A model generated the notes under the pieces. It searched no databases. It was not told where the DNA came from and was given only the letters and a program-made list of their open reading frames with translations. Position numbers and translations under genes: made by a program. Source: a virus. Taken from it: DNA of 64,000 nucleotides. The stretch lies in IMG/VR virus record IMGVR_UViG_3300009159_008968, positions 1 to 64,000 of that record. One strand, given 5' to 3'. Shown here piece after piece: positions 18,403 to 60,738 of the stretch; positions within the stretch are counted from its first letter, which is position 1, and each line of letters begins with the position of its first letter.

Positions 18403-18916
18403 TTTTAAAAATTTAACACTTTCCATTCTATTGATTTTGGTTTGTGTTTCTAGATTAATTCCACATCCTTACAATTTCAGTCCTGTTGCAAGTATATTTA
18501 TAATGGCTCCTTTATTATTTAATAATAAAAGATGGTCTTTGACTGTTTCTTTTATTCCATTAATAATAAGCGATATGTTAATTGGTAAATTTTTATATCA
18601 CTCTGAAAACTTAATTTATGATGGATTTATCTGGGTTTATTTTTCATATTTTTTGATGTGGTTATTCTCTCAAAAAATAGGAAACACAAAAGGTTTTATC
18701 ATAAATAACTTATCAGCATCGTTGATCTTTTTTTTAATTACCAATGCCGGATGTTGGATAAATAACCCAATGTATAGTCAAAATGTTTTTGGTTTATTTG
18801 AAAGTTATATTGCTGGAATTCCTTTTTACTGGAATACTTTAGCAGGAATTTTGTTTTATTCATCAATAGTTTATTTGATGGAAAAAGGCATAAACAAAAT
18901 TTCTTTCTCTAATTAA
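18392..18916 (+). CDS. DUF6580-type (ECF S-component-like) membrane protein, predicted cobalamin transporter
   Basis: SRLIPHPYNFSPVA, FFLITNAGCW and YIAGIPFYWN; about six TM helices. Confidence 0.7.
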   Translation: MQNNFKNLTLSILLILVCVSRLIPHPYNFSPVASIFIMAPLLFNNKRWSLTVSFIPLIISDMLIGKFLYHSENLIYDGFIWVYFSYFLMWLFSQKIGNTKGFIINNLSASLIFFLITNAGCWINNPMYSQNVFGLFESYIAGIPFYWNTLAGILFYSSIVYLMEKGINKISFSN

Positions 18917-19434
18917 TGAGAATATTTTTCTGAATGCAGAAGAGAATATAGATATTCAAACATTTCGTGATATTGGCTATTGTAAAGTTGAGATTCAAAT
19001 TCATGAAATTCTTCTTTATATTTTTCAAACATATCACTTGATTGACTTTTTGAATATTCTGCATTAGCAATTCTATCACAAATTTTTACAAAAGTTGCAT
19101 ATGGAACTGCTCTTATTCCTGCATAATATTTATCATTTGCCCTCTCCTTTCTGTTTTTACCTTTTTCATTAGTAAGAGCATAAACAATTTCTGCTACTTC
19201 AATACCTAGTTGTGATTTTACATCATTATATGTAACACGAGTATCTTCAATAAGATCATGAGCCCAACATGAAGCTAAAACTATTTCTTGTTCTGAATTA
19301 GGAATTAAAGAAATAAATTTCTTTGCTATTTCAACAACCATATTTAAATGAAATTCATATGGCAAATCATCGTAGAAATGATTTGTTGATTGATGGCAGT
19401 TTACTGAATAATTTTTAGCGTGATCTTCTAACAT
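18913..19434 (-). CDS. HD-domain hydrolase, Mesh1/SpoT-like small alarmone hydrolase
   Basis: LPYEFHL, AHDLIEDT, EIVYALT, VKICDRIAN. Confidence 0.8.
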   Translation of the reverse strand: MLEDHAKNYSVNCHQSTNHFYDDLPYEFHLNMVVEIAKKFISLIPNSEQEIVLASCWAHDLIEDTRVTYNDVKSQLGIEVAEIVYALTNEKGKNRKERANDKYYAGIRAVPYATFVKICDRIANAEYSKSQSSDMFEKYKEEFHEFESQLYNSQYHEMFEYLYSLLHSEKYSH

Positions 19435-19484
19435 GTTTTTAATATATAAATCTAAAAGTAAAGATACTAAAAAAATACAAAATT

Positions 19485-19515
19485 AAAAACCCCGAACCTT
19501 TTGGATCCGGGGTTT
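19485..19515 (-). terminator. Intrinsic terminator closing the ncRNA operon
   Basis: Minus strand AAACCCCGGATCC-AAAA-GGTTCGGGGTTTTT, about 18 nt after the 3' end of RNA B. Confidence 0.8.
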
Positions 19516-19532
19516 AAATTTTTTAATAAAAT

Positions 19533-20395
19533 GGCTGAGATTATACCATTTTGAGGTAGCCTTTGAGATCATTATCCTTTTCGAGGTTCTCTCTTTTATC
19601 CACGGACCTTTCAGTCAACGTATCCACCAGTCTCAGTCTTTAGACTCCTCTCGGAATCTTGACCAACATTCTCGTCAGAGCTGTTCTGCAACCTAGTAAC
19701 ACCAGATAGGATGGCCGTCCCACCACGATGCTTTGAGTCACAAAGTGAAACAGATCTTGCGAACCTGCCTCACACTCAGTTGTCATTGCTGACCTGAGCT
19801 TTAGAGACCTTTTGCTCTTGACGCTAGGAGTCTTGGGCTGTATCTTTAAATTTTTCATTTTTTAAGATGACATAATCCACGAATTTATGAAGGATGTGCT
19901 CCCAGAGTAGCTCTGTTCCTTTTGAGAACAAAATACTACACACCCCTCTGTCAGCTTTGCGGTGCCAACGACCAGATGAAACTAACTCCCACAACTTAAT
20001 TTGTGTTACCAAATTACTTTATAGGTCTTAGCCAACCTTGCTGGTCAAAGCACTTCCCCTTCGCATGAGGTCGCACTTTATAGGTTTCATACATTTCTGC
20101 ATTACGCCTAACTCTGTTATTTCTTTCAATTGGTTGCCCAATTAAATCGTCTAACAGAAAAAACCTTGAGATGTTTCTATTGTACCTCTCGATACTCAAC
20201 TGCACATTCGTTTATGCAATGCTACCTACCGACTTGCCCAGCCATCAATAGCGAACTCTCATTGTTTGGATGTCCTCCCCAACTTCAGGAAGGCGGATCT
20301 TGCGGATGAGTTTTACCCCAAAGGATCATGTGCAAGATTCCTTTTATACTCCGTCACCGGAGCTTATCTTATGGATGCCAAACCACCCAATATTT
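19533..20395 (-). ncRNA. Large structured ncRNA, copy B (~860 nt; GOLLD-like, family unverified; 5' end approximate)
   Basis: Non-coding and GC-richer. GNRA-capped stems CTCCG-GTGA-CGGAG (20349-20362) and GTCA-GCAA-TGAC (19782-19793); 3' long-range helix CTGAGA/TCTCAG; several blocks shared with copy A. Confidence 0.75.
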
Positions 20396-20399
20396 TTAA

Positions 20400-20413
20400 T
20401 CAAAGAACGATTT
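20400..20413 (-). promoter_or_regulatory. boxA-like antitermination element (AAATCGTTCTTTGA)
   Basis: Identical 14-mer at 21351-21364 and a 13-nt match at 21556-21568; resembles rrn boxA (TGCTCTTTAACA / TTCTTTGA). Confidence 0.6.
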
Positions 20414-20414
20414 T

Positions 20415-20486
20415 GTTGACTTTCCGGATTCGAACCGGTTAAACCCACACTCTTCTCGTTGTGGTATTTATTTCGCCATAAGTCAA
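20415..20486 (-). tRNA. Degenerate tRNA-like element (pseudo-tRNA) in the spacer between the two large RNAs
   Basis: Acceptor TTGACTT/AAGTCAA (7 bp); T-arm CCGG-TTCGAAT-CCGG; anticodon-like stem CCACA/TGTGG with a 10-nt loop; D region TGGCGAAATAAATA lacks GG; no CCA. Confidence 0.6.
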
Positions 20487-20499
20487 ATTTAATTTTGAT

Positions 20500-21345
20500 A
20501 GGTTGAGATTACACCATCTCGTGAGGAGACTTTAAGAAGCAGTACGGAATTTCACCTTAACCTCTATATCCACGATTGCTCGTATCCCTCAGTCTCAGTT
20601 AATTTCATCTTACAAGTTTAACCCTATAAAACTTAGTTAACCAATCTTTATCGTCAGAGTTGTTCTGCCTTATCAACCACAATCAAACTCGGAGGAGTTA
20701 AAACATGGAAATTCTTAGTTTTAAGACAAGACAAAGAATGCACCTTTGCACATTCTCCCAGATTAGCATAGTTAGTTACCTAACTTGCTACCGAGAATTA
20801 GAGACCTTTTACTCTTAACGCCATTCAGCATTTATATCGCTTACCATTTTCAGGCTATTCGGCTTATTTATTTGCAAAGCGACAAATACGAATTTATATC
20901 AGATACACTGATGGTAGTGGCTCATTTAAGAATACCACACATCTGATTTGTCAGAATCGATCAAAATCCTGACTGCTATATAAGACACGAATAAGAGTAA
21001 TCCTAAACGACCTTACACAACTGGAATAAAACAAAGTAGTGATTAGCAACTTTATTTTAACTCAAGATATTTCAATCCTGAGCAATCGTAATAGTAATAA
21101 AACGATTTTCCTAGAAGTTCAACTATTGCCATTTCTGACTCAATCCCCTGTTCGCCCAGTTCGGATGTAATAACACAATCAATTAAGATTATGCAGTACG
21201 TTGCTTCCTTGCTTAGATGTCTTGTTTTCACAAGCGAGTACCGTTGTTCATTTTCCGGTATCCCATTTATTCCCCATTGCTGGGGGTTTATCTATCACAG
21301 ATCATGTTACCATGTCTGAAGAGTCTAAGCACTCTTTAATTTCTT
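20500..21345 (-). ncRNA. Large structured ncRNA, copy A (~845 nt; GOLLD-like, family unverified; 5' end approximate)
   Basis: GNRA-capped stems CATG-GTAA-CATG (21303-21314), CCCCA-GCAA-TGGGG (21272-21285), CTTGT-GAAA-ACAAG (21221-21234), AGTTAG-GTAA-CTAACT (20770-20785) and ACGA-GCAA-TCGT (20572-20583); 3' part homologous to copy B. Confidence 0.75.
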
Positions 21346-21350
21346 ATAAT

Positions 21351-21364
21351 TCAAAGAACGATTT
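21351..21364 (-). promoter_or_regulatory. boxA-like element upstream of RNA A
   Basis: AAATCGTTCTTTGA, 18 nt downstream of promoter P3. Confidence 0.6.
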
Positions 21365-21381
21365 CCTTTTAATTGGGACTG

Positions 21382-21411
21382 CAAATATAAATGATTTTTT
21401 TTAATTTGCAA
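21382..21411 (-). promoter_or_regulatory. Bacteroidota sigma-A promoter P3
   Basis: TTG (21411-21409), N19, TATATTTG (21389-21382). Confidence 0.75.
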
Positions 21412-21469
21412 CAATTGTTAATAACTTTATAATTTTTATTTTCAATTGTTTTTTCCCGTTTTGGAGTTG

Positions 21470-21499
21470 CAAATATAGAAAGGTTTTTTCTAATTCCAA
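21470..21499 (-). promoter_or_regulatory. Bacteroidota sigma-A promoter P2
   Basis: TTG (21499-21497), N19, TATATTTG (21477-21470). Confidence 0.75.
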
Positions 21500-21555
21500 G
21501 AATTGTTAATAACTTTTGTTTTTTGTTAATTACAGTCCTAAACTCCAATGCCGAT

Positions 21556-21616
21556 TCAAAGAACGATTATCAAATCAACACTGCAAATATAAAAACAATT
21601 ATTCTTATATTCCAAA
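21556..21616 (-). promoter_or_regulatory. Promoter P1 plus boxA-like element
   Basis: TTTG (21616-21613), N21, TATATTTG (21591-21584), then AATCGTTCTTTGA (21568-21556). Confidence 0.65.
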
Positions 21617-21655
21617 TGTTTTTTTTAAAAAAATTATAAAATACAGATAATCAAT

Positions 21656-22717
21656 CTAAAAAGTTTGATTCCATTTTTCTAGATCTAATTTATATTCTTC
21701 TATAAAGCAAACCCAGTTTTTTTCACTTTTAAAACTGTAATACCAAAGCTTTATTTTGCTAAGATATTGAAGATTAAACTTTTTGAAAAATAGACCTAAA
21801 GATAACTTATTAATAATTGATTTAGATTCTGTTGGTTCTGCTTTATAAAGATTTGAAACCCATGTTATTTCATCAGACACTATTACTGGTACATTATTAT
21901 TTACAAAATCAGCCGCTACTATATTAAAGGTTTCTGTGAATGAAACTTGTAATCCAATATCCATCTTTCTTACTAAGTTAATAAAGTCTTCGTGAGTTAA
22001 CCAGCTATGTTCTACGAGTTTATGTTTAGGGTTATTAATAAATAGATTTCTTAAATTTTTAAGAACAGGATCTCCGTTGTTTTCTACTCTTGCTACATTT
22101 ACATGAAAATGTAATTCCTTGTTAATAGAATTAGCAAACTCTATTGCAGCAACAGCCTGATATAATTGATTCTTTAAAGGTCTGATTGCACCAAAACATC
22201 CAACACTCAAAATGTTTTTATTTTTATTGTGGTATTCATTTTTTTTATCAAATAAATTTACCGGATAATAATTTGGAAGATATATTGTTTTTTTAGGAAG
22301 AATATTATTAAAGTCTTTGTATGTAGTTTTTGAATTTACAGAAACAAAAACATTTTTAAACTTTTGGTACTCATAAACCCACTCCATTGCTATACCTTCA
22401 TTTGCTATAAAAGGTATTTCACTATGAAGTCGTATAATCCATTTTACATTAGGATGTAATTTTGTTAAAACTTCAAATTTAGATGGAACAACCCATAAAG
22501 CTTCAATTATAACAATATCTGCCTTGTATTTTTTAACTTCTCTATCAATTTCATTATTATCTTTTACTTCTATCAGATGAGAGTTGTAACCATTTTTCTG
22601 TAACATTTTGTTAACAAAAGTTGCAGAATTTAAAAGTCCAGAAGATATAGTTTCAATATCCTTGTGTGAGGTCATTCGTTTTTTTAAGATAAACAGAATG
22701 TTAGGAGAAGAGTGCAT
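21656..22717 (-). CDS. Glycosyltransferase (GT-B/GT4-like)
   Basis: YLPNYY, VGCFGAIRPLKNQ, MDIGLQVSFTETFNIVAAD..PVIVS. Confidence 0.75.
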   Translation of the reverse strand: MHSSPNILFILKKRMTSHKDIETISSGLLNSATFVNKMLQKNGYNSHLIEVKDNNEIDREVKKYKADIVIIEALWVVPSKFEVLTKLHPNVKWIIRLHSEIPFIANEGIAMEWVYEYQKFKNVFVSVNSKTTYKDFNNILPKKTIYLPNYYPVNLFDKKNEYHNKNKNILSVGCFGAIRPLKNQLYQAVAAIEFANSINKELHFHVNVARVENNGDPVLKNLRNLFINNPKHKLVEHSWLTHEDFINLVRKMDIGLQVSFTETFNIVAADFVNNNVPVIVSDEITWVSNLYKAEPTESKSIINKLSLGLFFKKFNLQYLSKIKLWYYSFKSEKNWVCFIEEYKLDLEKWNQTF

Positions 22718-46312: not shown

Positions 46313-49300
46313 TTAACCTTCGTTCATTCCTAATCTTTTTAACATTGCGACCAATTTAGGCGTTGGAGCAGAATCAGTATGAGTACCACCATTAGAAGAC
46401 CAGTGAGTGAAAATACCATAATTGGCTGAATTGCCTTTTCCATATTTAGGTACTCTTGGTGTACTTCCCGGTGCTGGTTTTCCATCAACAGCTCTAAATG
46501 TAAACGACCAAAGATTTTGACCTTGTATAGCCTGTTGTATTTTTGGATACCTTGTAAACAATTCTCTTATTAATTTTTCTAATGCTACAATTTGAGCATC
46601 AGTATATTCTTGATAATATTGATAACCTAACCAATTAAATCCTAAATTAACATTAGGAGGCATGATTGAACCCATAAATTTTTGACCATCATAATGGAAT
46701 CTTCCTCCAGCAGGGCTATAAAAAATAGGATTTCCATTATCACCATTACCTTTATCTGGCCTAGGTTCCATTTTTCCTAAATTACACATTTCAATTCCTA
46801 TTCCATGGTCATTCCAACTATTACCGTGAACAGAATAGATATCCTCTGGTATACCAGCTGCAGTTTTTCCTTGCCAATCTATTGCGTAATGAATACCTCC
46901 TGTTTTAAATGGACCTCCACAACTTCCTACGTGGTCAACTGTATCTACTGCATTCCTACCATATCCAGCAGTGAAATGTAAAGTTATAGAACGAACTTCT
47001 CTCTTGAAAAATTGTTTCTCTTTACCAGTGTGTATCCATATAAAACTATTTCCTCTTTTAACCGATGTACATGTATTGTCTGCATTTCGTTGTCCTTCTT
47101 CGTTGGGCGGTGCTAAACTAGTAGTTGCATTTGAATTAAATGGAACAGAAGGGGCAACAGCACCCTCAGGATATAATGTATCTAAAATTGTATAAACTCT
47201 AGTTCTATGTACTTTTTGATAATCGTCTCCAGCATTAACTTTTTTTGCTTCTTTTTCAATTGCTCTAATTAATTCTTCTTTTGGCTTATCAAGAGGAGCC
47301 ATATATTGGTATTTAGAAGATTTTGCATGAGTATATATTGCAAAACCTTGTATTGCTCCAGATGTAAATAAATCGTCCCAATCAGCATTAGAAGATTTTG
47401 TTAATATCACTTCTTTGTTTCCATTGTATGGACTTGCTTTCCAATTACCTTGATATTTTCTTACAATAGAATCAGTTCCAATGTATGTTAAAATAAACTC
47501 TACAAATTTTTCGTATTGACTTCTCCAAGTACTTTGAATGAATCCTCTGCCAGCAAATTTATAAAAGTCTGCTTCACTAATAAAAGTAGAACTTGTAGTT
47601 GCTGCATCTTGAACATTTGCAAATAAAGATTTTGGAAAAGTTGTTCCTTTCCAAGCTGCATCATTAGATTTGGCAACTTTAGGATCGGTACCAAATTTAA
47701 GACCTTTGAATGCATCAATATAATTTGGATTATTAAATAATTCTCCTGCAGTTTTATTTGGAGCTTTATTATAAGAAGCTTTGCTACGAGCATCTTTACC
47801 ATTAGTAGCTGGTAACGCATAAGCATCAAACGCATATGCTATTCCGGGATGTTCAGCATTACTTAAAGAATTCATTCCTTCGTGCTTACTTTGATAACTA
47901 CCTCCAGTTTCTTCATAAATAATAGCATTAAGTGCAACAAATTCTAAGAAATTGCACCCTGATGTTCCATAATCAGGCCAAACTATAGGTATAAGAAAAT
48001 CCCAAACACTCTTAAAATTAGCTGCATTTATTTTAGCATTACATAAAGGTTTTTTATTTCCAGCTAATTCAGCATTGAACCAAGTGGCAAAATCATTATA
48101 TTTATTTTTGGTGAATTCTTTTATAATCGGATTTATATCGTCTGTTTTTGTTATTTTTTTATTTTTTATTTTTTGTAAAAATGTATAATTTAAATCACCA
48201 CCAAAACCAAGATTTTCTGTTCCGCCTCCACCACCAACAGATCCACCGCCATCATAACTTTTTAAACTTGTTCTTGTAATTGGCATTACAGCAGCAAAAT
48301 TTTCACCACCACCATACTTCATTTTAACTGCATCAATGGTAGTTTCCATGTTGTTAGGAGTAATTTTATGTTGAACTTCTGTTATCCAATATAAACCAGT
48401 AAAAATAGGAAGACCTTCAACTGCTATTAATTGTGTTGGATACAACTGAGCATTACCAATTAAATCTAAAGATATTTTATAACTTCTTCCTTGCATTACT
48501 GCTAACATAGAACAATCAAAACTTTTTCTTTTATTTTGATTTTGAGGATTTGCAATATCACTTGTTGCTTGTATACTTTCAGATGTTACTTTATTGTCAT
48601 CTGTTCCAGCCTTAATTGATTTTACGATTACATTATTAGGATCGCCATATCGTAAACCTAAAATAGGTTGATCTATTTTATTTAATTGATCAAAGAAAGT
48701 ATCGTCTGGATAAATTGATTCATTACTATTATTTTTTAATAATCTATTTTCTGGTGTAGGGGCCCAAATAATTGATAAAGCGTTTTTACCAGCACCATAA
48801 TCTAATCCATTTGTTGGCAAAAAAATATCACGCAGGTCATCAGTTATTCCACCGGGAATAGGTTGTAATAAAAAATTATTCGTAGTGCAAATATTTTGCA
48901 TCATATTAAGAGTCGATGTCTGAGAATTATTTTCTAATAATGAATCTGTATTAATAATAGCATCTTTAATATCTATACCAGCAGTAACTTGATTTGCTAA
49001 TGGAAATTGAAAATTCAAATAGAAAAAAGAATTTTTGTCAGTTGATCTGTATGCATTTTCTAAAGCTGTTCTTAAATTCATCGATCTAGAGTTTGTACCA
49101 GCAGGCAAGCTCCCATTTCCTTCTAAATCATTAATATTTGCTAAAGCAATCCATGCTTGACAAATATGATGAAATTGTGTATAAACAGCGTTAATTTCAG
49201 CTTGATCATATGTGTAAGGTTGTGGCCCTGTAACTTCTGTTGTGGCTATGTCTGTAAATGCTCCGCCTCCGCCAAAAGCAGAAGCTGTTTGTGCATCTTG

Positions 49301-51727
49301 TACTTTTTTCTTTTTTACTTCTGAATCTGTTAAACTTAAATATGTTTTATTAGGATCTAATATAGCGCCACAAAAAAAGTATAAATAAGATCTAGTTAAT
49401 GTATTGTCTAAATCTATAACATATGAACTAGCATTTTTCATTGTTTTACCATCCAATAATCTAAAAATAAAATCATTAGGTTTTGGTGCTGAACCTTGTG
49501 CTCCACCACTTTTAGAATGTTGAACAAACATTTGTTGTGGTGTAAAATAAACTGAAGTATAAATTCCATTTGCATCAGGATTACCTAATAAATTATAATA
49601 ATCAATGAAAACAGATTTATTTTTATCATCAGTTTTAATCAAATCTGTTGCTCTAAACATTTGATAAAATGCTGAACTTGTAGTTCCAGTAATTGGAACT
49701 TTAGGATCTCCCATAGAAGGATCAAAAGTAGCTGTATCGGCTAACTTTTCACTAATTAAACTTTGGGCAGCTTGGACAGGATTACCATCCTTGGGAGAAG
49801 CATACACTATTATGTCGTTACCATCACCTAAAAGATTATTATTAAATAGATTATTTGTATTGGGTCCACCTAGAGTAGTAGCGACATCTTTAAGACTTTT
49901 AGGATTATGATATAAAATATCATTGTTATAAGTATATACAGATTTAAGAGTTGATGCGTCTTTGTTATAAAATTGAGCTGTTTCAGGAGCTTTAGGGAAT
50001 TTTCCAAAATATCCAGCTAAATAATTTTTAAGTGTTAAGTTTGCACTTGTAGTATAATTAAATTTTTGCGGGGATTTAAAAGCACCTGTGCCATCCCAAC
50101 TTTCTCTTATTACCTTACAAAATCTTGTTAAAGTTTCTTTTTCATTTCCCTTTAATTGATTCACTAATTCTTTGACATTTTCTAATTCAGAATCAATATA
50201 AAATTGAGCAGGTGATCCACTAATATCAGCAACAGAACCACCAAATCCAGAACCTAACAATCCTGCTCTTTGAATTAAATTAACAATTATAGAATCAGCG
50301 GTTGCAAAGTATGGTGAATTATCTCTAAATGTTTCAGCGTTTCCAATTTTTTTACTAAAAGTTCCGGGTGTAGCACCTTGAGTTGGATCTGCACTTTCAG
50401 TACCTTCTTTTTTGGCTTGAACTTCATCAATTACTTTATTAGCTTCTTGATTACCAATATAAAATGCTTTAACAAATTCCTTAACTTTTGCTATTTCTTG
50501 TGTATCAGCTCCATTCCATGGAATTTGTTCTCCAAGTGTAGTTGCTTCAGCATTTGGGTTTTTATTTTCAAACAAAGGATAATAGTTGCCAAATATTTCA
50601 TTATTTGTTAGCCTACTACTATCACTATTAAATCCTGCAAGACCACCTTCTAAAATATATCCGAGAATATAAGCACAATCACCAGCCAATCTTGTCATTA
50701 CATTGCCTATTGATTGGGTATCTAAAACTTTATTTTCTACACTAGAATAAGCTTGTGTTTTTGATAGATCTTGTACTATTTTTAAATTTTCATTTAGTAT
50801 TTTTTTTACATTTGCTTCTTGAATTTGTACAGAATCTATTGTTGTAGAAGCACTTAATTTTTTAAAGTCATCATTAAGATTTATTTGCGTTGTTGAATTT
50901 ATGCTTAAAAAAATTGATTTACCATAAACTTCTAATTGATTATCTGCTATTTTATTGAGTAATTCGCCTTTTGGGTTTTTTGTATTAATATTAAATGATA
51001 TTGATTTAAAATTTTTTCCAATTAAATCACTATCTCCGAGAATTGGATCTAATTTTAATGTTCCATCTCGAAAAGCAGTACCAATTGCATTATAGTTTCC
51101 AGAAAATGTTTGTAATTGTGAAATTAATGGGCCATATTTATCTGTAGCTTGTTGAATTTGAATGTTTATATCAAAACCAACTTTTGCTATTTCAATAATA
51201 GAACTATCAGATCCGTTTGTAGTATCGCCATTAATTTTTTTTAATTCTTTTACAGCAAACAAAAATTGATATGGTATATCATTAAGAAAACCAAAAACAT
51301 TAGGAACAAATTCTGCTTTAATTTCATAACTTCCGTCTGTTGGTACAAAAGTTGTTTTTACGGATTTAACTTGTAATAAAAAACTTACAGGTTTTCCAAG
51401 GTATCCTTTAACATATAATCTAAATTTTGGATATGGTAATTGAAATAATACTTTATAATTAAATTCTGATTCTTGATCATTAAAAATTAAATTTCCATAT
51501 AAATCTTTAAATGTTATACTTACTACAGGCTGTAAGTTTGGCTTTATATCTATATCAATACTAGTAATACCAAATCCTAAATTACTTTGAAATGGACCTA
51601 TTCTATAAGAATCAAGACCAGTCATATTAATAGGTTTACCTCCTCCAATAGGAGTTGCTTCTAGATAGAAATCCAGTGTTAAATCTTGTGGTCTAATTTC
51701 ACTATCTTTAGTATGAATTACTGCCAT
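46313..51727 (-). CDS. Baseplate hub protein with C-terminal lysozyme-like and amidase domains
   Basis: N-terminal FGITSIDIDI..SITFKD; hub-like LIGNAQL..FTGLYWITEVQHKI; FAGRGFIQSTW (GH19-like); ITLHFTAG..IHYAID..HGIGIEMC..IFTH (Amidase_2). Confidence 0.7.
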   Translation of the reverse strand: MAVIHTKDSEIRPQDLTLDFYLEATPIGGGKPINMTGLDSYRIGPFQSNLGFGITSIDIDIKPNLQPVVSITFKDLYGNLIFNDQESEFNYKVLFQLPYPKFRLYVKGYLGKPVSFLLQVKSVKTTFVPTDGSYEIKAEFVPNVFGFLNDIPYQFLFAVKELKKINGDTTNGSDSSIIEIAKVGFDINIQIQQATDKYGPLISQLQTFSGNYNAIGTAFRDGTLKLDPILGDSDLIGKNFKSISFNINTKNPKGELLNKIADNQLEVYGKSIFLSINSTTQINLNDDFKKLSASTTIDSVQIQEANVKKILNENLKIVQDLSKTQAYSSVENKVLDTQSIGNVMTRLAGDCAYILGYILEGGLAGFNSDSSRLTNNEIFGNYYPLFENKNPNAEATTLGEQIPWNGADTQEIAKVKEFVKAFYIGNQEANKVIDEVQAKKEGTESADPTQGATPGTFSKKIGNAETFRDNSPYFATADSIIVNLIQRAGLLGSGFGGSVADISGSPAQFYIDSELENVKELVNQLKGNEKETLTRFCKVIRESWDGTGAFKSPQKFNYTTSANLTLKNYLAGYFGKFPKAPETAQFYNKDASTLKSVYTYNNDILYHNPKSLKDVATTLGGPNTNNLFNNNLLGDGNDIIVYASPKDGNPVQAAQSLISEKLADTATFDPSMGDPKVPITGTTSSAFYQMFRATDLIKTDDKNKSVFIDYYNLLGNPDANGIYTSVYFTPQQMFVQHSKSGGAQGSAPKPNDFIFRLLDGKTMKNASSYVIDLDNTLTRSYLYFFCGAILDPNKTYLSLTDSEVKKKKVQDAQTASAFGGGGAFTDIATTEVTGPQPYTYDQAEINAVYTQFHHICQAWIALANINDLEGNGSLPAGTNSRSMNLRTALENAYRSTDKNSFFYLNFQFPLANQVTAGIDIKDAIINTDSLLENNSQTSTLNMMQNICTTNNFLLQPIPGGITDDLRDIFLPTNGLDYGAGKNALSIIWAPTPENRLLKNNSNESIYPDDTFFDQLNKIDQPILGLRYGDPNNVIVKSIKAGTDDNKVTSESIQATSDIANPQNQNKRKSFDCSMLAVMQGRSYKISLDLIGNAQLYPTQLIAVEGLPIFTGLYWITEVQHKITPNNMETTIDAVKMKYGGGENFAAVMPITRTSLKSYDGGGSVGGGGGTENLGFGGDLNYTFLQKIKNKKITKTDDINPIIKEFTKNKYNDFATWFNAELAGNKKPLCNAKINAANFKSVWDFLIPIVWPDYGTSGCNFLEFVALNAIIYEETGGSYQSKHEGMNSLSNAEHPGIAYAFDAYALPATNGKDARSKASYNKAPNKTAGELFNNPNYIDAFKGLKFGTDPKVAKSNDAAWKGTTFPKSLFANVQDAATTSSTFISEADFYKFAGRGFIQSTWRSQYEKFVEFILTYIGTDSIVRKYQGNWKASPYNGNKEVILTKSSNADWDDLFTSGAIQGFAIYTHAKSSKYQYMAPLDKPKEELIRAIEKEAKKVNAGDDYQKVHRTRVYTILDTLYPEGAVAPSVPFNSNATTSLAPPNEEGQRNADNTCTSVKRGNSFIWIHTGKEKQFFKREVRSITLHFTAGYGRNAVDTVDHVGSCGGPFKTGGIHYAIDWQGKTAAGIPEDIYSVHGNSWNDHGIGIEMCNLGKMEPRPDKGNGDNGNPIFYSPAGGRFHYDGQKFMGSIMPPNVNLGFNWLGYQYYQEYTDAQIVALEKLIRELFTRYPKIQQAIQGQNLWSFTFRAVDGKPAPGSTPRVPKYGKGNSANYGIFTHWSSNGGTHTDSAPTPKLVAMLKRLGMNEG

Positions 51728-51729
51728 TT

Positions 51730-52032
51730 TTAATTATAGTTACTACTAAGTATTTTTGAATTAAATTCAGATAAAACATCTGATATCGGATTAGGAACTC
51801 TTATTACTGCGCCAGAGGGTATATTAAATTCCATATAATATTGTGGGTTGGCTAACAATATTAACCAATACAAAGTATCATCACCATAAGCATCTGCGGC
51901 TATTCTATCAAGTCTAGTTTTGTTTGGATTGTATGTAACAAAAATATCAGTAGATCTATTACTAATTTTTATCTTAGGAAGAGATCTCATCTCTCCATTA
52001 AATTTTAACTTTGCATATCTTGAAACTGGCAT
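51730..52032 (-). CDS. LysM-like baseplate/tail protein (gp53 / tail-X-like)
   Basis: RLDRIAADAYGDDTLYWLILLANP..IPSGAVIRVP. Confidence 0.75.
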   Translation of the reverse strand: MPVSRYAKLKFNGEMRSLPKIKISNRSTDIFVTYNPNKTRLDRIAADAYGDDTLYWLILLANPQYYMEFNIPSGAVIRVPNPISDVLSEFNSKILSSNYN

Positions 52033-52071
52033 TTTTCTAAATTATTTTTTTTATTTTTAAAGTAAATATTA

Positions 52072-55000
52072 TTATTTTCCAAATAGACCAAACGAACTGA
52101 ATCCCTGTGCGGGTTGAAGTCCTGTTATTAATGTTCCTGAAGATGGTGTTGGTTCACCTGTAACCGGTTCATTTGGTTTTATGTCATTATCTTTTTTAAG
52201 TGTATCATCAGGATTATCTTGTGTTTTTGCTAGTATTCCAAAGAATCCGTCAGTATCACTTGCTAATGGTGGAGCAATGTCAGGATTAATACTAGCCCCA
52301 TATTTACCAAGTATTTTAAAACCAAGCGTAACGGCAACCATAAGAGGTTGTACTCCGTCTGTAACTAACCCATCTTCTTCTCCAAAGCTATCTAATGTCC
52401 AAGTCCCTTCTTTATAATCATAATCAACACTATCAAATAACACATAGTGATCAATCCAATCCCCTAATTTCATTTTACATATTGGAGGAGTTATGAAATT
52501 GAATCCGGATCTAGCACTAGGGTTTTTAGCAGGTTTAGTTAATTTTTCAATAAATTTTACTCTATTTCTAAAATCCACTTTTGAACCGGAGAAAAATGCT
52601 GGTTGAAATAATAGATTCTTTTTCATATTAGCAAGTCTATCAGCTGTTTTAGATAAAGATGAAACAACATCACCATATCTATCATCTGGAACTGTACCAG
52701 TATTTAATAAATCTGCATAAACATTATTAAATCCTTTTCTTTGTTCTGTATATATATTTTCTTCAGTTTTATTTATTAGTTCAGCTTGTTTAGCTTCTAA
52801 AGCTAATTTTTCATTGTTTAAATCTTCTATTTTTTGTGTTAAATCACTAGTTTCTCCGTTTACTGGGTTATTTAATTTTTTATTATAAACATCAAGTTGT
52901 TCATTTAATTTTATAATTTGTTCTTTAGTTGATTTTATTTCAGCTCCTAATTGGTTATCTATAGAAACACCGTTAATTTGATCTTTTGATATTGTTGTTT
53001 CTGTAAAATTATCATTAAATGTTTCTTGATACGTTGTGTATAAATTCCAATTTACACCCATATCAACTTTTTGTGCATAATCTGTTAATATGAAAAATGA
53101 AATTGTTCCCTTTCTACTGCCTTTTGAGTAAGTGTACAATGCTTCTGGTCTACCAAGGAAAAATTGTTCATTCCAATCTGCTTGAGAATTATGAGAGAAT
53201 TTTTCAATATATGGAGGAAAAAACATTTTTTTAACATCAGAAGAAGTGTCTGGTATTGCAAGATTTTCAATTGAGAATATTAAATTTTTTGAAGAGGTTG
53301 CACCTTTGTAAGGGTTTACAATAGTATATCTTTGTTTTGCTCTTTTAGGGGCTCCAAATGCATCATAACCTATGACAAATTCTCTGCTTTTTTGAGATTG
53401 GTAATTTTGATTTAATAAAGAATTACCTCCATTTCTTATAGTGTTTATGATATTACTAACTCCACGTCTATGTCTTCTAAAGTCAACCTCAATTTGTTGA
53501 GTAGGATTTGTTTGAGCCATCATTGACTGACTTGTGCCCAATTCAGTAGAAGGTGTTCCATCTAAACCAATTTCTGGTTTTAAAATTAATTCAGCATGAT
53601 TACCAAGATATAATCCTTTATTAGCATTTATAACTTGAGCAGGTACCGAATTTGTAGCCTCTTTATCTCCTTTTACACGATTCGCAAGATAATTAGGAAT
53701 ATACTGTCCCGGACCTAATCCCTTTGCAGTATAGAAAGATGCTCCAATATCACCAAATCGTCTTCCATGAAGACCCATGACATTCATTTCTAACTGTCTT
53801 TGTTGAGCAAGAGCCACCCATTCGCCATTACCTTTTACATTTTGATTAAATGAAGGTCCCATTAAGTTCCAATGTGGAAAATCAGTATCAGGACTTTGGA
53901 GAGTTGCTATAAATTGATTTTTTAATTTATTTAAAGCTCTTATTATTGCTCCATTAATATCTAAATTAGAAACTCCTAAGAAAACACTTGTTCCACCAAT
54001 AAACACATTAACACCGAGATCAAATCCATCTGGATCATTTTTTGCTAACAATGATTCTCTTATTGGCTGTGCTTCTAAATCTAAGCTTACAAATTGTGGT
54101 TGATTAGAACTTAATAAATTATCTCTTTGTGGTTGTGCTAAAGCATCTAAATTTATTTGATTAATTTGATTACTAGATAATAAATTAGTTCTAAATGGAG
54201 CAACTAAATTATCTAAATCAATTATTGATGGGATGTTATTTGCTAATAAAGCATTTCTTTCAGAATTAGCAAGTGCATCTAAATCAATATTTGAAGGTAC
54301 ATTGCTTGACAACAATGTTGTTCTTATTGGAGCAGCTACAGCGTCCAAATCCAAAAACTGTGCTTGATTAAATGCTAATAAATTATTTCTTGGACTTACA
54401 GATTCTATATCTAAATCTATGTTACTAGGAACATTCTTTACTAATAAATTAGTTCTTGGATTAACAGCCTCTGCATCTAAATCAACAAACTGAGGTTGAT
54501 TTATTGCTAACAAATTAGATCTAATGCCAGCTGCTTCTGCATCTAAATCAACTAATAAAGTGTTAACATTTTTAGCTAATAAAGATAATCTTTCTTGTTG
54601 TGCTTGAGAATCTAAATTTACTAATAGAGTATTAACATTTTTAGCTAATAATAAAGATCTCTCTTGTTGTGCTTGAGCATCTAAATCTACTAATAATGTA
54701 TTAACATTAAATCCAAATAAATTTAAGCGTACAGATGTTGCTAAACTATCTAGATTTATTGTTGATGGTACATTAGCTGATATTAAATCATTTCTATAAC
54801 TCGCTGAAAGTTGATCTAAGTCAAATAACCTTATAACATTAGATCCTACTAATTTTTCTCGAATAGGCTGAGCTGTTGCATCTAAATCATTTACTAATAT
54901 TTTAGAATTTGCAACTAAAAGATTTTTTCTTAGTGGCTCAGAGAATTTATCAAGACTAATAAATTGAGGAACATTAAATGATAATAAATTTTCCCTTGCA

Positions 55001-58000
55001 GCGTTAGCTGTTTTTTCAAGATCTTGTGTTATAATAGAATTGTTTTTAGCTAAAATTTCTTCTCTATTTCGAGAAGCTATTTTATCCAAATCAATGTTTT
55101 TTATATTTTGATTACTAGTTAATGCATTTAATCTTGGTTGAGCTGATATGTTATCTAAGCTTATAAATTGAGGTTGATTAAAACCTAAAAGATTGTTTCT
55201 GGAATTCAAAGCTATTCCTTCAATATCAATTTTACTCGCAACATTTTTTTGTAAAATGTCTTTTCTATTAGAAGCAGCGATAGCATCTAAATCAATTGCT
55301 AGTATTTGAGTGTTTCTTGTTAATAGATCTTTTCTATATGGTTCTGCTGCTTTATCTAAATCAGGAAATTGAGGTATATTTTTAACAATTAATGATCTTC
55401 TTAATGTTTCTGCATTTCCATCTAAATCAATAAGAGTTGGAATATTTTTACTTAAAATATTAATTCTTTGCTCACTTGCAGTAGCATCTAAATCTATTTG
55501 TTTTATATTGTTTCTAGAAATAGCATTTACTCTAATTGGTAAAGCAATAGCATCAAGATCCACAAACTGAACTTGATTAAATGAAACTAAATTATTTCTG
55601 ATTGCCTGTGCTTGTGCATCTAAATCAAAAAGTTTAGTTTCGTTTTTACCTAATAAGTTGGTTCTTTCAATTTCTGCTAATTTATCTAAATCAATAACTC
55701 CATAAATATTTTTACTAACCAAGTTATTTCTAACTACAGTTGCAGTCTTATCAAGGTCAATTAATGTTGTTTGATTCTTCGATAACAAATCTTGTCTTTG
55801 ACTTACTGACAATGTATCTAAATCAATAAATTGAGCTCTATTAAATGCTAATAAATTATTTCTTAAACTTACAGAATCTTTATCTAAATCAACAAGGCTA
55901 ATCTGATTGAATTTTAATAATGCTACTCTGTTTGGAGCAGACAAATCATCAAGATTAAGTGATTTTTCTATGTTTTTCCCAATAAGAGTTTCTCTTATAG
56001 TTTGTGCTTGAAGATCTAAATCGAAAAATTTATACTCATTACTTTTAAGTAATAATTTTCTATATTGTTCAGACAAAGAATCTAGATTAATTCTTGCTTC
56101 TTCATTTTTGCTTAATAAATTATTTCTTTGATCATTTGAAATATTATCAAGATCAATAATTTTTGTTTCATTTTTACTTAAAGAAACAGTTCTTATTTCT
56201 AAACCTAATTTATCAAGATCAATTAATTTTCCGGAGTTTGCAGTAAGTAATTTATATCTTATTGTATTTGCTTGATTGTCTAAATCAAAATATTTTATTT
56301 GATTTTTAGAAACAAGATTACTTCTTATTTTTGTGGCCTGAGAATCAAGATTTATTGGAGTTCCTTCGTTTTTATTAACTAGAGTTTTTCTAATTTCAGA
56401 AGCTTGAGTATCTAATAAATCATTTTTTTCAGTATAATTATTTTTACTTAGTAATTTTTCTCTTTGAGTAATTGATGCTTTTTCAATATCAATAGTATTG
56501 GTTAAATTTTTACCAATAAGATTATTTCTTATTAACTGAGCTTCAAATTCAAGATCAACTATTTTACTTCTATTTTTACTTAAAAGATTAGTTCTAGTAA
56601 TTAAAACAAGTTCATCAGTTTGTACTGAAGTAGAATTTTCGTGATTAGCTTTTAATAAATTATCTCTATAAAAACGTGCTAGTTTATCAAGATCAGCAAC
56701 ATTGACAATATTTTTTGTTATCAATCCTTGTCTGATTGTATATGCTTTATCATCTAAATTTATCGCTTCAAAATTAACATTCTTAGATAAAGCATTTGTT
56801 CGTGCCTTTAAAGATATTAACTCTAGATTGGCTTCTACAATTTCATTTTTAGCTAATAGATTCCTTCTGATTTCTAATGCATTAGTATCTAGAGTAGTAT
56901 CAATAATTTTTTTGATATTACTATTTTTAACCAATAAATTAGTTCTTGTGTTTCTTGCAATTATTTCTAATTCATCACTTAAATTTTCATTATTTTTTGC
57001 TAATAAATTTTTTCTAGGATTAGCAGCAATATCTTCTAATATCCTATTAAAGGTGTCATCATAAGTATTTTTACTCAACAGTTGATTACGATATGTAACA
57101 CCAACAGAATCTAAATCTATTAACTTATTTAAATTTTTAGTAATTAATCTAGTTCTTTCAGGTAACGCAACATCATCAAGATTTAAATCACCAAAATTCT
57201 GATTTTTTGCAAGTAAAGGTAATCTTACTGTTTCAGAAAGATTATCTAAAGCACCATTAGCTTCTGTATAATAATTTTTACTTAAGAGATTTGCCCTTTG
57301 ATTAATCGAAAGAATATCAATATCAATTAAATTAGAAACATTTTTAGAAATTAAATTATTTCTTAAACGTTCTGATTCAGTATCAAGACCCTTAAAGTTT
57401 GATTGATTCTTGGCTAAAAGTTCTTTTCTGTAATTTTCAGATTCTAAATCCTTATTGACTACATCTAAATACTGATTTGATTTTAATAAATTTAATCTTT
57501 GTATTTCAGCTTGTTCATCAAGATTTATTAAATTAGTTTGATTTTTTGCTAATAAATTATTTCTATATACTTGTATTTCTTTTTCAAGTTCTAGTTGATT
57601 AACTATTTGATTAGAACTTAAAAGATTATTTCTTATTTCCTGAGCAGCTTTATCTAAATCAACAACTTTGTTTTGATTTTTAGTTAATAGATTTGCTCTT
57701 TGATTAATTGATAACGTATCAATATTTATAAGATTACTAACATTTTTAGATATAAGTTTATTTCTAGTTGTTTCCGCTTCACTATCTAAATCAACAGTTT
57801 TATTTTGGTTTTTTGCTAGTAAATTATTTCTAAATACATTTGTCTGATCTTCTAATTCAGATTCATCAATTATTTGATTAGATTTTAATAAATTATTTCT
57901 TTGTATTTCCGCTTGTTTATCTAAGTCAAATAGTTTTATTGAATTTTTTGCAACAAGTGTTAACCTTTGATTAATTGCTAATTTTTCAAGATCTACCGGT

Positions 58001-60738
58001 TCGTTTTGATTTTTATTTAATAAGTTGTTTCTGAAATCTAGTGCAAAATCATCCAGATCAATAATATTGGTTTGATTCTTTGCTAATAAATTTTTTCTTA
58101 TTAATTGTACATCTCTCTCAATTTCTAATTGATTTAATATTTGATTGGAACTTAAAAGATTGTTTCTAATTTCTTGAGCAGCTTTATCTAAATCAACTGT
58201 CTTAGTTTGATTTCTAACAAGTAAATTTTGTCTAATTGAATTATAATCAAGCCCTAATTCATTAATTATCTGATTTGATTTTAATAAATTATTTCTTGTG
58301 TCTACAGCCAGTTCATCTAAATCAATAATCTTAGTTTGGTTCTTTGCTAAAATACTAAGCCTGTAATTATCTGTATTTCTTTCTAAATCTGCTTCAGTCG
58401 CTACTTGATTAGATTTTAACAAATTATTTCTTTGCGTTTCCGCTTGTTTATCTAAGTCAAATAACTGTATTGAATTTTTTGCTACTAGGGTTAATCTTTG
58501 GTTAATTGCTAGTTGCTCAAGATTTACTGGTTCATTTTGATTTTTATTTAATAAATCATTTCTAAAGTTTACAGCAAATTGATCAAGATCAACTATTGTA
58601 GTTTGATTTCTAGCTAATAAATTTTTTCTTATACCATCAACATCATCTAAATTTGTTACTAATCCGACAATTTGATTATATTTTAAAATATTAGCTCTTT
58701 GAGTTTCTGCTAATTTATCTAAATCAAATTCTTTTATTTGATTTTTTGTTAATAAATTAAATCTTTGATTAATTGAAAGAATGTCAATGTTTATAAGATT
58801 ACTAACATTTTTAGAAATCAATCTATTTCTACTAGTTTCAGCCTCACTATCTAGATCAACAGATTTGGTTTGGTTTTTAGCCAAAATACCTAATCTTATT
58901 AAATCATAATTAACTTTATTCTCACTAACAATTTCATTCTTACTTAATAAATTATTTCTATTAGCTTCTGCTAATTTATCAAGGTCAAATAAATTATAAA
59001 CATTTTTAACTACAAGAGTTGATCTAACTTTTCCAGCAACTTCATCAAGAGAAAATTCTTCAATTTGATTTTTATTTAAAGAAGCCAATCTTATTTCACT
59101 AGATAATGCATCTAAATCAAAAAGTTGATTTTGATTCCTTGCTAATAAATTTTTTCTAACATCATCAAAATTCTTATCTTGTGGATCTATAATTTGATTT
59201 TTAGCAACTAATGTTGTCCTGATTCTATTAGCAACAACCTCAAGATTTTCTTTATTTAAATTTTCATTTTTAGCTAATAAATTAAGTCTTTGATTTATTG
59301 AAGTTTCGTCTAATATATTATTTGGACCACCTTCAAAAGTGTTTTTTGATAATAATGTATCTCTTATATCTTTTGCTAGAGCATCAACATCAAAAATATT
59401 TTTTAAATTTTTACTTAAAATTTTAAATCTAGCTTCAGTAGCTGTTTTTTCTAAATTATTTTCAGTAGTGTTCTCGTTTTTAGCAAGAGAATTATTACGA
59501 AATAATTCAGATTGCTTATCTAATAGACCATTTGATTCTGTATATATATTTCTTTTTAATAAATTAGATCTTTGATTAATTGATAAAAGATCAATGTTTA
59601 TTAAGTTAGAAAGATTCTTAGAAAGTAATTGGTTTCTTAATTCTTCAGTATTTTTTTCTAAATCTGCCGGAGGAACACTGTTTCTAGCTAACAAATTAAG
59701 TCTATATTGATCTTGCTTTGCTACCTCCTGTTCAACAGTAGAAGAAACTTGATTTGATTTTAATAGATTGTTTCTGTTACTTTCAGATAATTTATCTAAA
59801 TCAATTGTATTATAAATGTTTTTACTTAAAAGAGATAATCTTAGAGATGAATAATCTGTTGGATTTTTACCATTTAAAGAATTTTTACTTAAACTGGAAT
59901 TCCTTATATCTTCAGATAGTTTATCTAAATCTATTTCTCTTATTTCATTTTTAGCTAATAAACTATTTCTAACCACCACAAAATCGTTATCCATAACATT
60001 CTGAATAACTTGGTTTTTATTTAATAGTGTATTTCTTATTTCTTCTGAAGATTTATCAATATCATAAACTCCAAATTGAGAGTTTTTAGCTAATAAATTA
60101 TTTCTTTGATCATTTGATAAACTATCTAAAATTTGAGTATTGTTTTCAAATGTATTTTTCGCCAATAATCCACTTCTTATTTTTTCTGCAGCAATTTCTA
60201 CATCTACTAATGTGTTTAAATTTTTACTTAATAAATTAAACCTAGTAACATTAGCAGTTCTTTCAACACTATCTGGATTTACTATTTCATTTTTAGGTAA
60301 TAGATTTTGTCTGGCTAATGTAGCAGTTCTGTCTACTTTACCATATAATTGAGATTCATTTTTTGCTAATAAAGATAATCTAGTTTTTTCTGATAATTCC
60401 TCAAGATCTTGATTAGAATTTAATAAAATATTTTTTGAAATAAGATTTTCTCTAATTGTTTTTGATATTTCTTCTGTATCAGAAATATTTTGAACGTTTT
60501 TAGATAATAAAAGTGTTCTTAAATATTGAGAATTTTCATCTAAATTAGCAACAATTGATTGATTTTTGGCCAATAGATCCTTTCTTACCTTATAGGCATC
60601 ATATATATTTTTTGGAAAAGGGACATTTTTACTCAGTAACTGTTGTCTTACCGAATCTGTATATCCACCAAAAAACTCTTCAAATTTAGTCCTTTGCCTA
60701 CGTTCTTCTTCTGACTCAAAAGGAAAATCTTCAATCAT
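52072..60738 (-). CDS. 2888-aa repeat protein with a C-terminal tail-tube-initiator/baseplate-like domain
   Basis: About 2200 aa of ~22-aa repeats. C-terminal FFPPYIEKFSHNSQADWNEQFFLGRPEALYTYSKGSRKGTISFFIL and PPICKMKLGDW..VDYDY are typical of contractile-tail tube-initiator proteins. Confidence 0.65.
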   Translation of the reverse strand: MIEDFPFESEEERRQRTKFEEFFGGYTDSVRQQLLSKNVPFPKNIYDAYKVRKDLLAKNQSIVANLDENSQYLRTLLLSKNVQNISDTEEISKTIRENLISKNILLNSNQDLEELSEKTRLSLLAKNESQLYGKVDRTATLARQNLLPKNEIVNPDSVERTANVTRFNLLSKNLNTLVDVEIAAEKIRSGLLAKNTFENNTQILDSLSNDQRNNLLAKNSQFGVYDIDKSSEEIRNTLLNKNQVIQNVMDNDFVVVRNSLLAKNEIREIDLDKLSEDIRNSSLSKNSLNGKNPTDYSSLRLSLLSKNIYNTIDLDKLSESNRNNLLKSNQVSSTVEQEVAKQDQYRLNLLARNSVPPADLEKNTEELRNQLLSKNLSNLINIDLLSINQRSNLLKRNIYTESNGLLDKQSELFRNNSLAKNENTTENNLEKTATEARFKILSKNLKNIFDVDALAKDIRDTLLSKNTFEGGPNNILDETSINQRLNLLAKNENLNKENLEVVANRIRTTLVAKNQIIDPQDKNFDDVRKNLLARNQNQLFDLDALSSEIRLASLNKNQIEEFSLDEVAGKVRSTLVVKNVYNLFDLDKLAEANRNNLLSKNEIVSENKVNYDLIRLGILAKNQTKSVDLDSEAETSRNRLISKNVSNLINIDILSINQRFNLLTKNQIKEFDLDKLAETQRANILKYNQIVGLVTNLDDVDGIRKNLLARNQTTIVDLDQFAVNFRNDLLNKNQNEPVNLEQLAINQRLTLVAKNSIQLFDLDKQAETQRNNLLKSNQVATEADLERNTDNYRLSILAKNQTKIIDLDELAVDTRNNLLKSNQIINELGLDYNSIRQNLLVRNQTKTVDLDKAAQEIRNNLLSSNQILNQLEIERDVQLIRKNLLAKNQTNIIDLDDFALDFRNNLLNKNQNEPVDLEKLAINQRLTLVAKNSIKLFDLDKQAEIQRNNLLKSNQIIDESELEDQTNVFRNNLLAKNQNKTVDLDSEAETTRNKLISKNVSNLINIDTLSINQRANLLTKNQNKVVDLDKAAQEIRNNLLSSNQIVNQLELEKEIQVYRNNLLAKNQTNLINLDEQAEIQRLNLLKSNQYLDVVNKDLESENYRKELLAKNQSNFKGLDTESERLRNNLISKNVSNLIDIDILSINQRANLLSKNYYTEANGALDNLSETVRLPLLAKNQNFGDLNLDDVALPERTRLITKNLNKLIDLDSVGVTYRNQLLSKNTYDDTFNRILEDIAANPRKNLLAKNNENLSDELEIIARNTRTNLLVKNSNIKKIIDTTLDTNALEIRRNLLAKNEIVEANLELISLKARTNALSKNVNFEAINLDDKAYTIRQGLITKNIVNVADLDKLARFYRDNLLKANHENSTSVQTDELVLITRTNLLSKNRSKIVDLEFEAQLIRNNLIGKNLTNTIDIEKASITQREKLLSKNNYTEKNDLLDTQASEIRKTLVNKNEGTPINLDSQATKIRSNLVSKNQIKYFDLDNQANTIRYKLLTANSGKLIDLDKLGLEIRTVSLSKNETKIIDLDNISNDQRNNLLSKNEEARINLDSLSEQYRKLLLKSNEYKFFDLDLQAQTIRETLIGKNIEKSLNLDDLSAPNRVALLKFNQISLVDLDKDSVSLRNNLLAFNRAQFIDLDTLSVSQRQDLLSKNQTTLIDLDKTATVVRNNLVSKNIYGVIDLDKLAEIERTNLLGKNETKLFDLDAQAQAIRNNLVSFNQVQFVDLDAIALPIRVNAISRNNIKQIDLDATASEQRINILSKNIPTLIDLDGNAETLRRSLIVKNIPQFPDLDKAAEPYRKDLLTRNTQILAIDLDAIAASNRKDILQKNVASKIDIEGIALNSRNNLLGFNQPQFISLDNISAQPRLNALTSNQNIKNIDLDKIASRNREEILAKNNSIITQDLEKTANAARENLLSFNVPQFISLDKFSEPLRKNLLVANSKILVNDLDATAQPIREKLVGSNVIRLFDLDQLSASYRNDLISANVPSTINLDSLATSVRLNLFGFNVNTLLVDLDAQAQQERSLLLAKNVNTLLVNLDSQAQQERLSLLAKNVNTLLVDLDAEAAGIRSNLLAINQPQFVDLDAEAVNPRTNLLVKNVPSNIDLDIESVSPRNNLLAFNQAQFLDLDAVAAPIRTTLLSSNVPSNIDLDALANSERNALLANNIPSIIDLDNLVAPFRTNLLSSNQINQINLDALAQPQRDNLLSSNQPQFVSLDLEAQPIRESLLAKNDPDGFDLGVNVFIGGTSVFLGVSNLDINGAIIRALNKLKNQFIATLQSPDTDFPHWNLMGPSFNQNVKGNGEWVALAQQRQLEMNVMGLHGRRFGDIGASFYTAKGLGPGQYIPNYLANRVKGDKEATNSVPAQVINANKGLYLGNHAELILKPEIGLDGTPSTELGTSQSMMAQTNPTQQIEVDFRRHRRGVSNIINTIRNGGNSLLNQNYQSQKSREFVIGYDAFGAPKRAKQRYTIVNPYKGATSSKNLIFSIENLAIPDTSSDVKKMFFPPYIEKFSHNSQADWNEQFFLGRPEALYTYSKGSRKGTISFFILTDYAQKVDMGVNWNLYTTYQETFNDNFTETTISKDQINGVSIDNQLGAEIKSTKEQIIKLNEQLDVYNKKLNNPVNGETSDLTQKIEDLNNEKLALEAKQAELINKTEENIYTEQRKGFNNVYADLLNTGTVPDDRYGDVVSSLSKTADRLANMKKNLLFQPAFFSGSKVDFRNRVKFIEKLTKPAKNPSARSGFNFITPPICKMKLGDWIDHYVLFDSVDYDYKEGTWTLDSFGEEDGLVTDGVQPLMVAVTLGFKILGKYGASINPDIAPPLASDTDGFFGILAKTQDNPDDTLKKDNDIKPNEPVTGEPTPSSGTLITGLQPAQGFSSFGLFGK
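54040..60660 (-). repeat. Intragenic array of roughly 95-100 degenerate ~22-aa repeats (DLDxxAxxxRxxLLxKN)
   Basis: Read directly from the translation; the count is estimated from length divided by period. Confidence 0.8.

Follow-up and report, generated by a model that had tools for sequence, protein, structure and literature searches.

Two diverged tandem copies of the GOLLD RNA in a jumbo-phage-like virus genome

The two large RNAs found in this viral sequence are copies of a known family, the GOLLD RNAs, which form RNA-only cages; the family had gone unrecognised in the initial annotation of the locus. We searched the window (the whole stretch of 64,000 nucleotides that was analyzed, which comes from a jumbo-phage-like IMG/VR virus record of 135 kb with an estimated completeness of 55%) with the Rfam models. 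The only match above threshold was GOLLD (RF02032), on the minus strand at 19948-19532 with 178.2 bits (GOLLD RNA B). A permissive scan of positions 18500-22500 gave a second GOLLD match on the same strand, at 20947-20500, with 69.2 bits and an E-value of 4.9e-17 (GOLLD RNA A). The Rfam model spans just the 3' half of GOLLD, and cmscan aligned its positions 1-416 in both RNAs. With a gathering score of 150 bits for RF02032, B lies above the cut-off and A below it; given its E-value over the full model, the A match is not due to chance, and A is a diverged homologue. The Rfam cut-off therefore misses diverged GOLLD paralogues such as this one. The locus consists of two paralogous GOLLD genes, derived from a tandem duplication within this jumbo-phage lineage. 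We consider it probable that B is a canonical cage builder, that A is a specialised derivative maintained by selection, and that the two are made as one processed transcript.

Both RNAs open with the same 13-nt leader, AATCGTTCTTTGA. Taking this leader as the GOLLD 5' end, A extends over 21364-20500 and B over 20413-19532 (minus strand), which corresponds to 865 and 882 nt from the common leader to the 3' end, with ends that we infer rather than map (the 5' end of B from the leader motif together with the end of a tRNA-like relic, described below). B comprises a 5' domain (20413-19949) and a conserved 3' domain (19948-19532); the 3' domain of A covers 20947-20500. Both copies have the length of about 800 nt and the variable 5' domain that characterize GOLLD. 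They share with the known GOLLD RNAs (~800-900 nt, phage-encoded) the conserved 3' domain, in which helices P13-P27 are present in the same order in A and B with the conserved junctions: J15/16, the GUGGAUA motif, and the L27 loop UAAUCUCA.

Leader copies are confined to this locus: the 135-kb record contains exactly three, at 21568, 21363 and 20412 of the minus strand, each of which is conserved in L010, a viral contig related to the window. Of 31 other viral GOLLD loci, 13 also have the leader core, GTTCTTTGA, which precedes their 3' core by 350-500 nt and looks like a conserved 5'-terminal element of GOLLD. The loci with this core include L133-L138, L141, L156 and L254-L257, where the remaining 5' domain is unalignable. 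We found no pairing partner for the core, the motif being invariant. Beyond the leader, the 5' domains of A and B cannot be aligned, and showed no similarity to each other or to the 31 other GOLLD loci using global alignment, blastn and nhmmer. The little identity initially reported between the 5' halves is consistent with their global alignment (z = 0.3).

The third leader copy (21556-21568, minus strand) has no GOLLD body behind it. It belongs to a promoter-plus-leader unit at window positions 21461-21591 (minus strand), composed of TATATTTGCAGT, 12-14 nt, and then AATCGTTCTTTGAAT, which is paralogous to the unit in front of A. Behind this leader, UUGGAGUU (21548-21541) can pair with AACUCCAA (21468-21461) in an 8-bp helix, of which 7 pairs are kept in L010 through three doubly compensated changes. 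This unit may represent either a vestige of a third copy or a small structured leader RNA.

The genes around the locus are those of a phage, and include an endolysin, an amidase, a nuclease, an HD hydrolase and a SNF2 helicase, and further a ribonucleotide reductase, DnaB, a UvsX-like recombinase and a DNA polymerase. Two very large ORFs (1804 and 2888 aa; 46313-60738, minus strand) follow downstream of the replication genes. The small ORFs within the two RNAs (62-72 aa) were taken as chance frames. We did not find any blastn match to the locus among 50,697 records of cultured phages, nor any relative of the DnaB helicase of this record with more than 37% identity.

The initial annotation had described collinear blocks shared by the two RNAs, and we recovered all of them. 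On the plus strand, with the B position given first, these are GGCTGAGATTATACCAT at 19533 and GGTTGAGATTACACCAT at 20501; ATCCACG at 19598 and 20568, with CGTATCC at 19619 and 20581; CAGTCTCAGT at 19628 and 20590; CGTCAGAGCTGTTCTGC at 19673 and CGTCAGAGTTGTTCTGC at 20652; and 24-mers at 19801 and 20798. The five blocks fall on the same covariance-model positions in A and B, and thus on equivalent structural positions. They correspond to L27/P27, the GNRA-capped P24 hairpin, J22/23, the 3' strands of P18 and P15, and the 5' strand of P15 with J15/16; the stem noted as capped by GAAA in B and by GCAA in A is this P24 hairpin, with its L24 loop. The global alignment of the two 3' domains was far above chance (z = 10.4, 70% identity). 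When four sequences were aligned, both sides had changed in 21 of the 67 predicted pairs, among them four of the nine P13 pairs, which are swapped between A and B, in line with the suggestion that the structure is kept while the sequence changes. The proposed pairing of UGAGA with UCUCA is possible in A and in B, where both strands are invariant; UGAGA is not conserved in other GOLLDs, and we found no support for this pairing.

A motif scan of IMG/VR identified two contigs, L010 and L012, that each matched twice at a spacing of about 1 kb. They are identical to each other over 7716 nt, and their 2165-nt segment with both RNAs is 84.8% identical to the window. The tandem layout, the three leaders and the promoter boxes are the same in L010 as in the window. 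Its two RNAs score 176.7 bits (orthologue of B) and 86.5 bits (orthologue of A) with RF02032, and B is 90.8% identical to its orthologue. An assembly artefact was rejected as the source of the pair, as the copies differ by 30% and the pair recurs in an independent sample. In this arrangement, two diverged tandem copies probably made as one transcript, the locus differs from the GOLLDs of the 62 other GOLLD-bearing virus records (25, 6 and 31 in record-wide searches): each has exactly one GOLLD, and 10 of the 62 are at least 90% complete. Neither was a second GOLLD present in any of about 90 related phage contigs, retrieved through the flanking HD-hydrolase and glycosyltransferase-like proteins. 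In the closest of them, G051, the single GOLLD lies 516 nt from the contig end, and an upstream copy could lie beyond. A clade-specific 25-base pattern, scanned against metagenomes, hit just the 222-kb contig that was already known. Judging by titles and abstracts, no tandem GOLLD pair is apparent in the papers found to contain both "GOLLD RNA" and "tandem", and the two GOLLD cage papers searched make no mention of tandem or hetero forms.

A maximum-likelihood tree built from 35 GOLLD 3' cores places A and B as sister lineages, their four sequences being grouped in a single clade (support 97/96). The pair is older than the split from the second phage genome, so the duplication is indeed an old one, as the initial annotation had supposed. 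One could instead imagine a separate acquisition of A and B, each from a different GOLLD lineage, with no duplication. Their 5' domains are unrelated in sequence, which would fit such an origin, and GOLLD 5' domains are known to be variable; however, the 3' cores are sisters with high support, they have long motifs in common that occur in no other GOLLD searched, and the two RNAs open with an identical 13-nt leader, so that we regard separate acquisition as very improbable. The clade-specific motifs of A and B were found in no other GOLLD of IMG/VR or of the JGI metagenomes. The two copies have evolved at different rates: in the same tree, the stem branches are 0.74 for A vs 0.34 for B, and the change since the split from L010 is 0.19 for A vs 0.068 for B (about 2.7 times).

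Fast evolution of A, at two to three times the rate of B, would be expected of a decaying, non-functional duplicate of B, as would its score under the Rfam cut-off and the absence of three contact motifs (see below). We examined the substitutions between the window and its relative against a control in which the observed substitutions were permuted to other positions with the same base (2000 permutations). Of the 271 MFE pairs of A, 234 persist in the relative, compared with 209.9 +/- 4.8 in the permutations, none of which reached the observed value; these pairs are counted on MFE structures, which are approximate at 865 nt, and the covariation comes from two genomes, the window and one independent relative. 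Doubly compensated pairs amount to 18-25 in A, vs 4-5 expected, and to 10-14 in B, vs about 1.2 expected. Both copies have therefore gained pairing-preserving substitutions far above the permutation controls, which bears out the structural selection proposed initially and indicates that A is a selected structured RNA rather than a decaying copy or pseudogene. A is also full length, with the conserved 5' leader, and is kept in a second genome with the same layout and promoters. The chance that A is merely decaying appears to us slight.

Upstream of A we detected three tandem promoter-like boxes of the form TTG-N19-21-TATATTTGCA (21380-21591, minus strand), with their -7 boxes at 21389-21380, 21477-21468 and 21591-21582. 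The 10-mer occurs at just these three sites in the 64 kb, and the three TAnnTTTG boxes are kept in L010. We take these boxes to be promoters of the Bacteroidota type, in which the locus would differ from known GOLLDs. A strong intrinsic terminator, with a 12-pair stem followed by a T run, is located after B (19487-19515, minus strand). Between A and B, we found neither a terminator nor a conserved TAnnTTTG box, from which it appears that the two RNAs are probably made as one transcript, then processed in the manner of a tRNA at the relic that separates them. Such a transcript would start at the triple promoter that precedes A and end at the terminator behind B, and would be cut at the relic, one base before the 5' leader of B.

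The tRNA-like relic spans 72 nt (20415-20486, minus strand). It has a 7-bp helix that resembles an acceptor stem and a T-arm whose loop is UUCGAAU, and ends one base before the conserved leader of B. Its acceptor helix shows a compensatory change in L010 (U-A to C-G); its anticodon region is not conserved in that relative. ARAGORN calls the relic at a relaxed threshold only, not by default, and the Rfam tRNA model gave nothing on the spacer at E<=10. Signals that resemble tRNAs direct the processing of polycistronic RNAs in tRNA punctuation and in the mascRNA of MALAT1. As in those systems, the mimic of an acceptor plus T-arm sits here exactly between two RNA products; in contrast to them, the element in the spacer is degenerate, lies below tRNA-finder thresholds, and is a putative cleavage signal. 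GOLLD RNAs are found in phage contexts beside tRNA genes; at this locus the phage context is clear, but the tRNA is a relic only, and ARAGORN with default settings found no intact tRNA gene in the 64 kb. In the related phage G053 (L259:591-3208), a single GOLLD lies inside an array of 13 tRNA genes, one of which, a tRNA-Ser, is within the GOLLD linker. One tRNA has the anticodon CUA (an amber reader), and could be a hint of stop-codon recoding in that phage.

Two GOLLD cages have been solved, the homo-14-mer of env-38 (PDB 9MEE; PMC12286853) and the homo-12-mer of Streptococcus agalactiae (PMC12990946). Their 3' domains are bridged by L14 adenines that enter the P21 helix of a neighbour, by L24 adenines that enter P21, by an L20 dinucleotide that pairs with J13/15 of the neighbour, and by the GC of the L21 loop, which self-pairs across the equator (PMC12286853, PMC12990946). 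We took the residue roles from Supplementary Table 2 of PMC12286853 and placed them on the Rfam model by local motif, not by absolute count; the bridge roles are carried over from two solved GOLLDs that are only distant relatives of A and B.

By this analogy, B appears to keep every 3'-domain contact element described for GOLLD cages (all coordinates are on the minus strand). Its L14 loop, CUCAAAAGG (19918-19926), would be the A-minor donor of bridge B6 (role from PMC12286853). The GC of its L20 loop, UUCGCAAGA (19755-19763), is predicted to pair with the GC of its J13/15 (19840-19832); the dinucleotides of this bridge, B7, covary across the 35 GOLLD cores (GC:GC, UC:GA, AC:GU and CC:GG). The single L21 loop, CGGCCA (19710-19719), holds the GGCC palindrome of the putative bridges B8/B9, and is the same in the outgroup L134. 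The L24 loop is GAAA in B and GCAA in A. B thus resembles the known GOLLDs in its L14, its L20:J13/15 pair, its GC-palindromic L21 loop and its GNRA L24 loop, and the GOLLD of S. agalactiae in having a single L21 hairpin.

In A, three of the five 3'-domain inter-subunit elements kept by B appear to be missing: the L14 loop, the J13/15 partner of L20, and the GC-palindromic L21; in these absences, as in its score below the Rfam gathering value, A is unlike known GOLLDs. The cmscan alignment of its P14 remnant (20921-20934) lacks thirteen model positions, among them the L14 loop, and A is the only one of the 35 cores without a CAAAAG-type L14 loop. The tip of its L20 hairpin, UGUGCAAAGGUG (20741-20752), has the GC, but the aligned J13/15 position (within 20837-20826) is AU, non-complementary to it, in the window and in the relative alike. 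The P21 region of A (20688-20717) consists of a conserved single-stranded 11-mer, UAAGAAUUUCC (20717-20707), absent from B, and of a hairpin (20697-20688) with two doubly compensated pairs in its stem relative to L010. The tetraloop of this hairpin is not conserved (CUCC vs UUAG), and there is no GC palindrome. By the same analogy, A would have lost one contact face (L14 and the J13/15 partner) and the equatorial kiss, and would have kept L20, the P21 helix and L24. Since A retains the GCAA motif of L20 and a GNRA L24 loop, some contacts with B are possible.

A search for loop-loop complementarity within A, within B and between them gave just AU-rich matches of 6-7 nt, with no covariation. We also observed that the single-stranded AAUUUC of A (20707-20717, minus strand) is complementary to GAAAUU in the L26 region of A (20546-20555) and, in A as well as in B, to the AAAUUC with which J13/15 begins. 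The loop of the last hairpin in the 5' domain of A (20955-20964, minus strand) contains a GAUC palindrome that is kept in L010. As judged from base complementarity, new tertiary or inter-subunit contacts could form at these sites, where every position is invariant.

B, as a canonical GOLLD, would presumably assemble into the dihedral, homo-oligomeric RNA cage that is usual for the family. A keeps the GOLLD 3' core fold under structural selection and has evolved about twice as fast as B. Because of its lost contact motifs and unrelated 5' cap domain, A is most likely a specialised derivative of GOLLD, which may have its own type of assembly, or be an accessory to the cage of B, rather than act as an equal, interchangeable subunit of a mixed ring. 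The initial annotation had offered two options, the subunit types of a heteromeric assembly and two functional variants. The latter fits better, given the three elements lost in A and the 5' cap domains unrelated in sequence.

Several features could nevertheless accommodate two subunit types of one hetero-oligomeric GOLLD cage. Co-transcription would deliver both RNAs in equal amounts in the same cell, A and B have the 3' core in common with a GNRA L24 loop in each, the GC in L20 of A could pair with the GC in J13/15 of B, and the P21 helix of A could take the A-minor contact from L14 of B. However, A has neither L14 nor the complementary J13/15 dinucleotide and cannot hand the ring contact to a next subunit, the GGCC loop of B lacks a counterpart in A, and no sequence is common to the two 5' cap domains. 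The loop-loop matches between A and B are just short, AU-rich and non-covarying, and the solved GOLLD assemblies are all homo-oligomers. We therefore think a hetero-oligomer of this kind improbable. A symmetric mixed A/B ring is unlikely, since the canonical ring and equator contacts appear unusable by A. It is also rather doubtful that A serves as a dedicated second subunit or assembly modulator of the cage of B. If it did, the L20/P21 face of A may accept the L14 and J13/15 face of B with no onward contact, and the outcome would be a natural hetero-oligomeric RNA cage, or rings of B that are capped or opened.

A further large RNA of phages and prophages, ROOL (RF03087), also forms an RNA-only cage and is often found near tRNAs. 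It is unrelated to GOLLD in sequence and fold, and RF03087 had no match in our Rfam scans. The natural GOLLD and ROOL cages reported so far are all homo-oligomers. The preferred reading, a canonical B beside a specialised A, provides a natural pair in a single phage, in which one copy is canonical and the other is under selection and lacks specific inter-subunit loops. Such a pair bears on which contacts set assembly and stoichiometry, on heteromeric or regulated RNA cages, and on RNA maturation. Finally, the promoter type points to a possible host in Bacteroidota, which would extend the host range of GOLLD.
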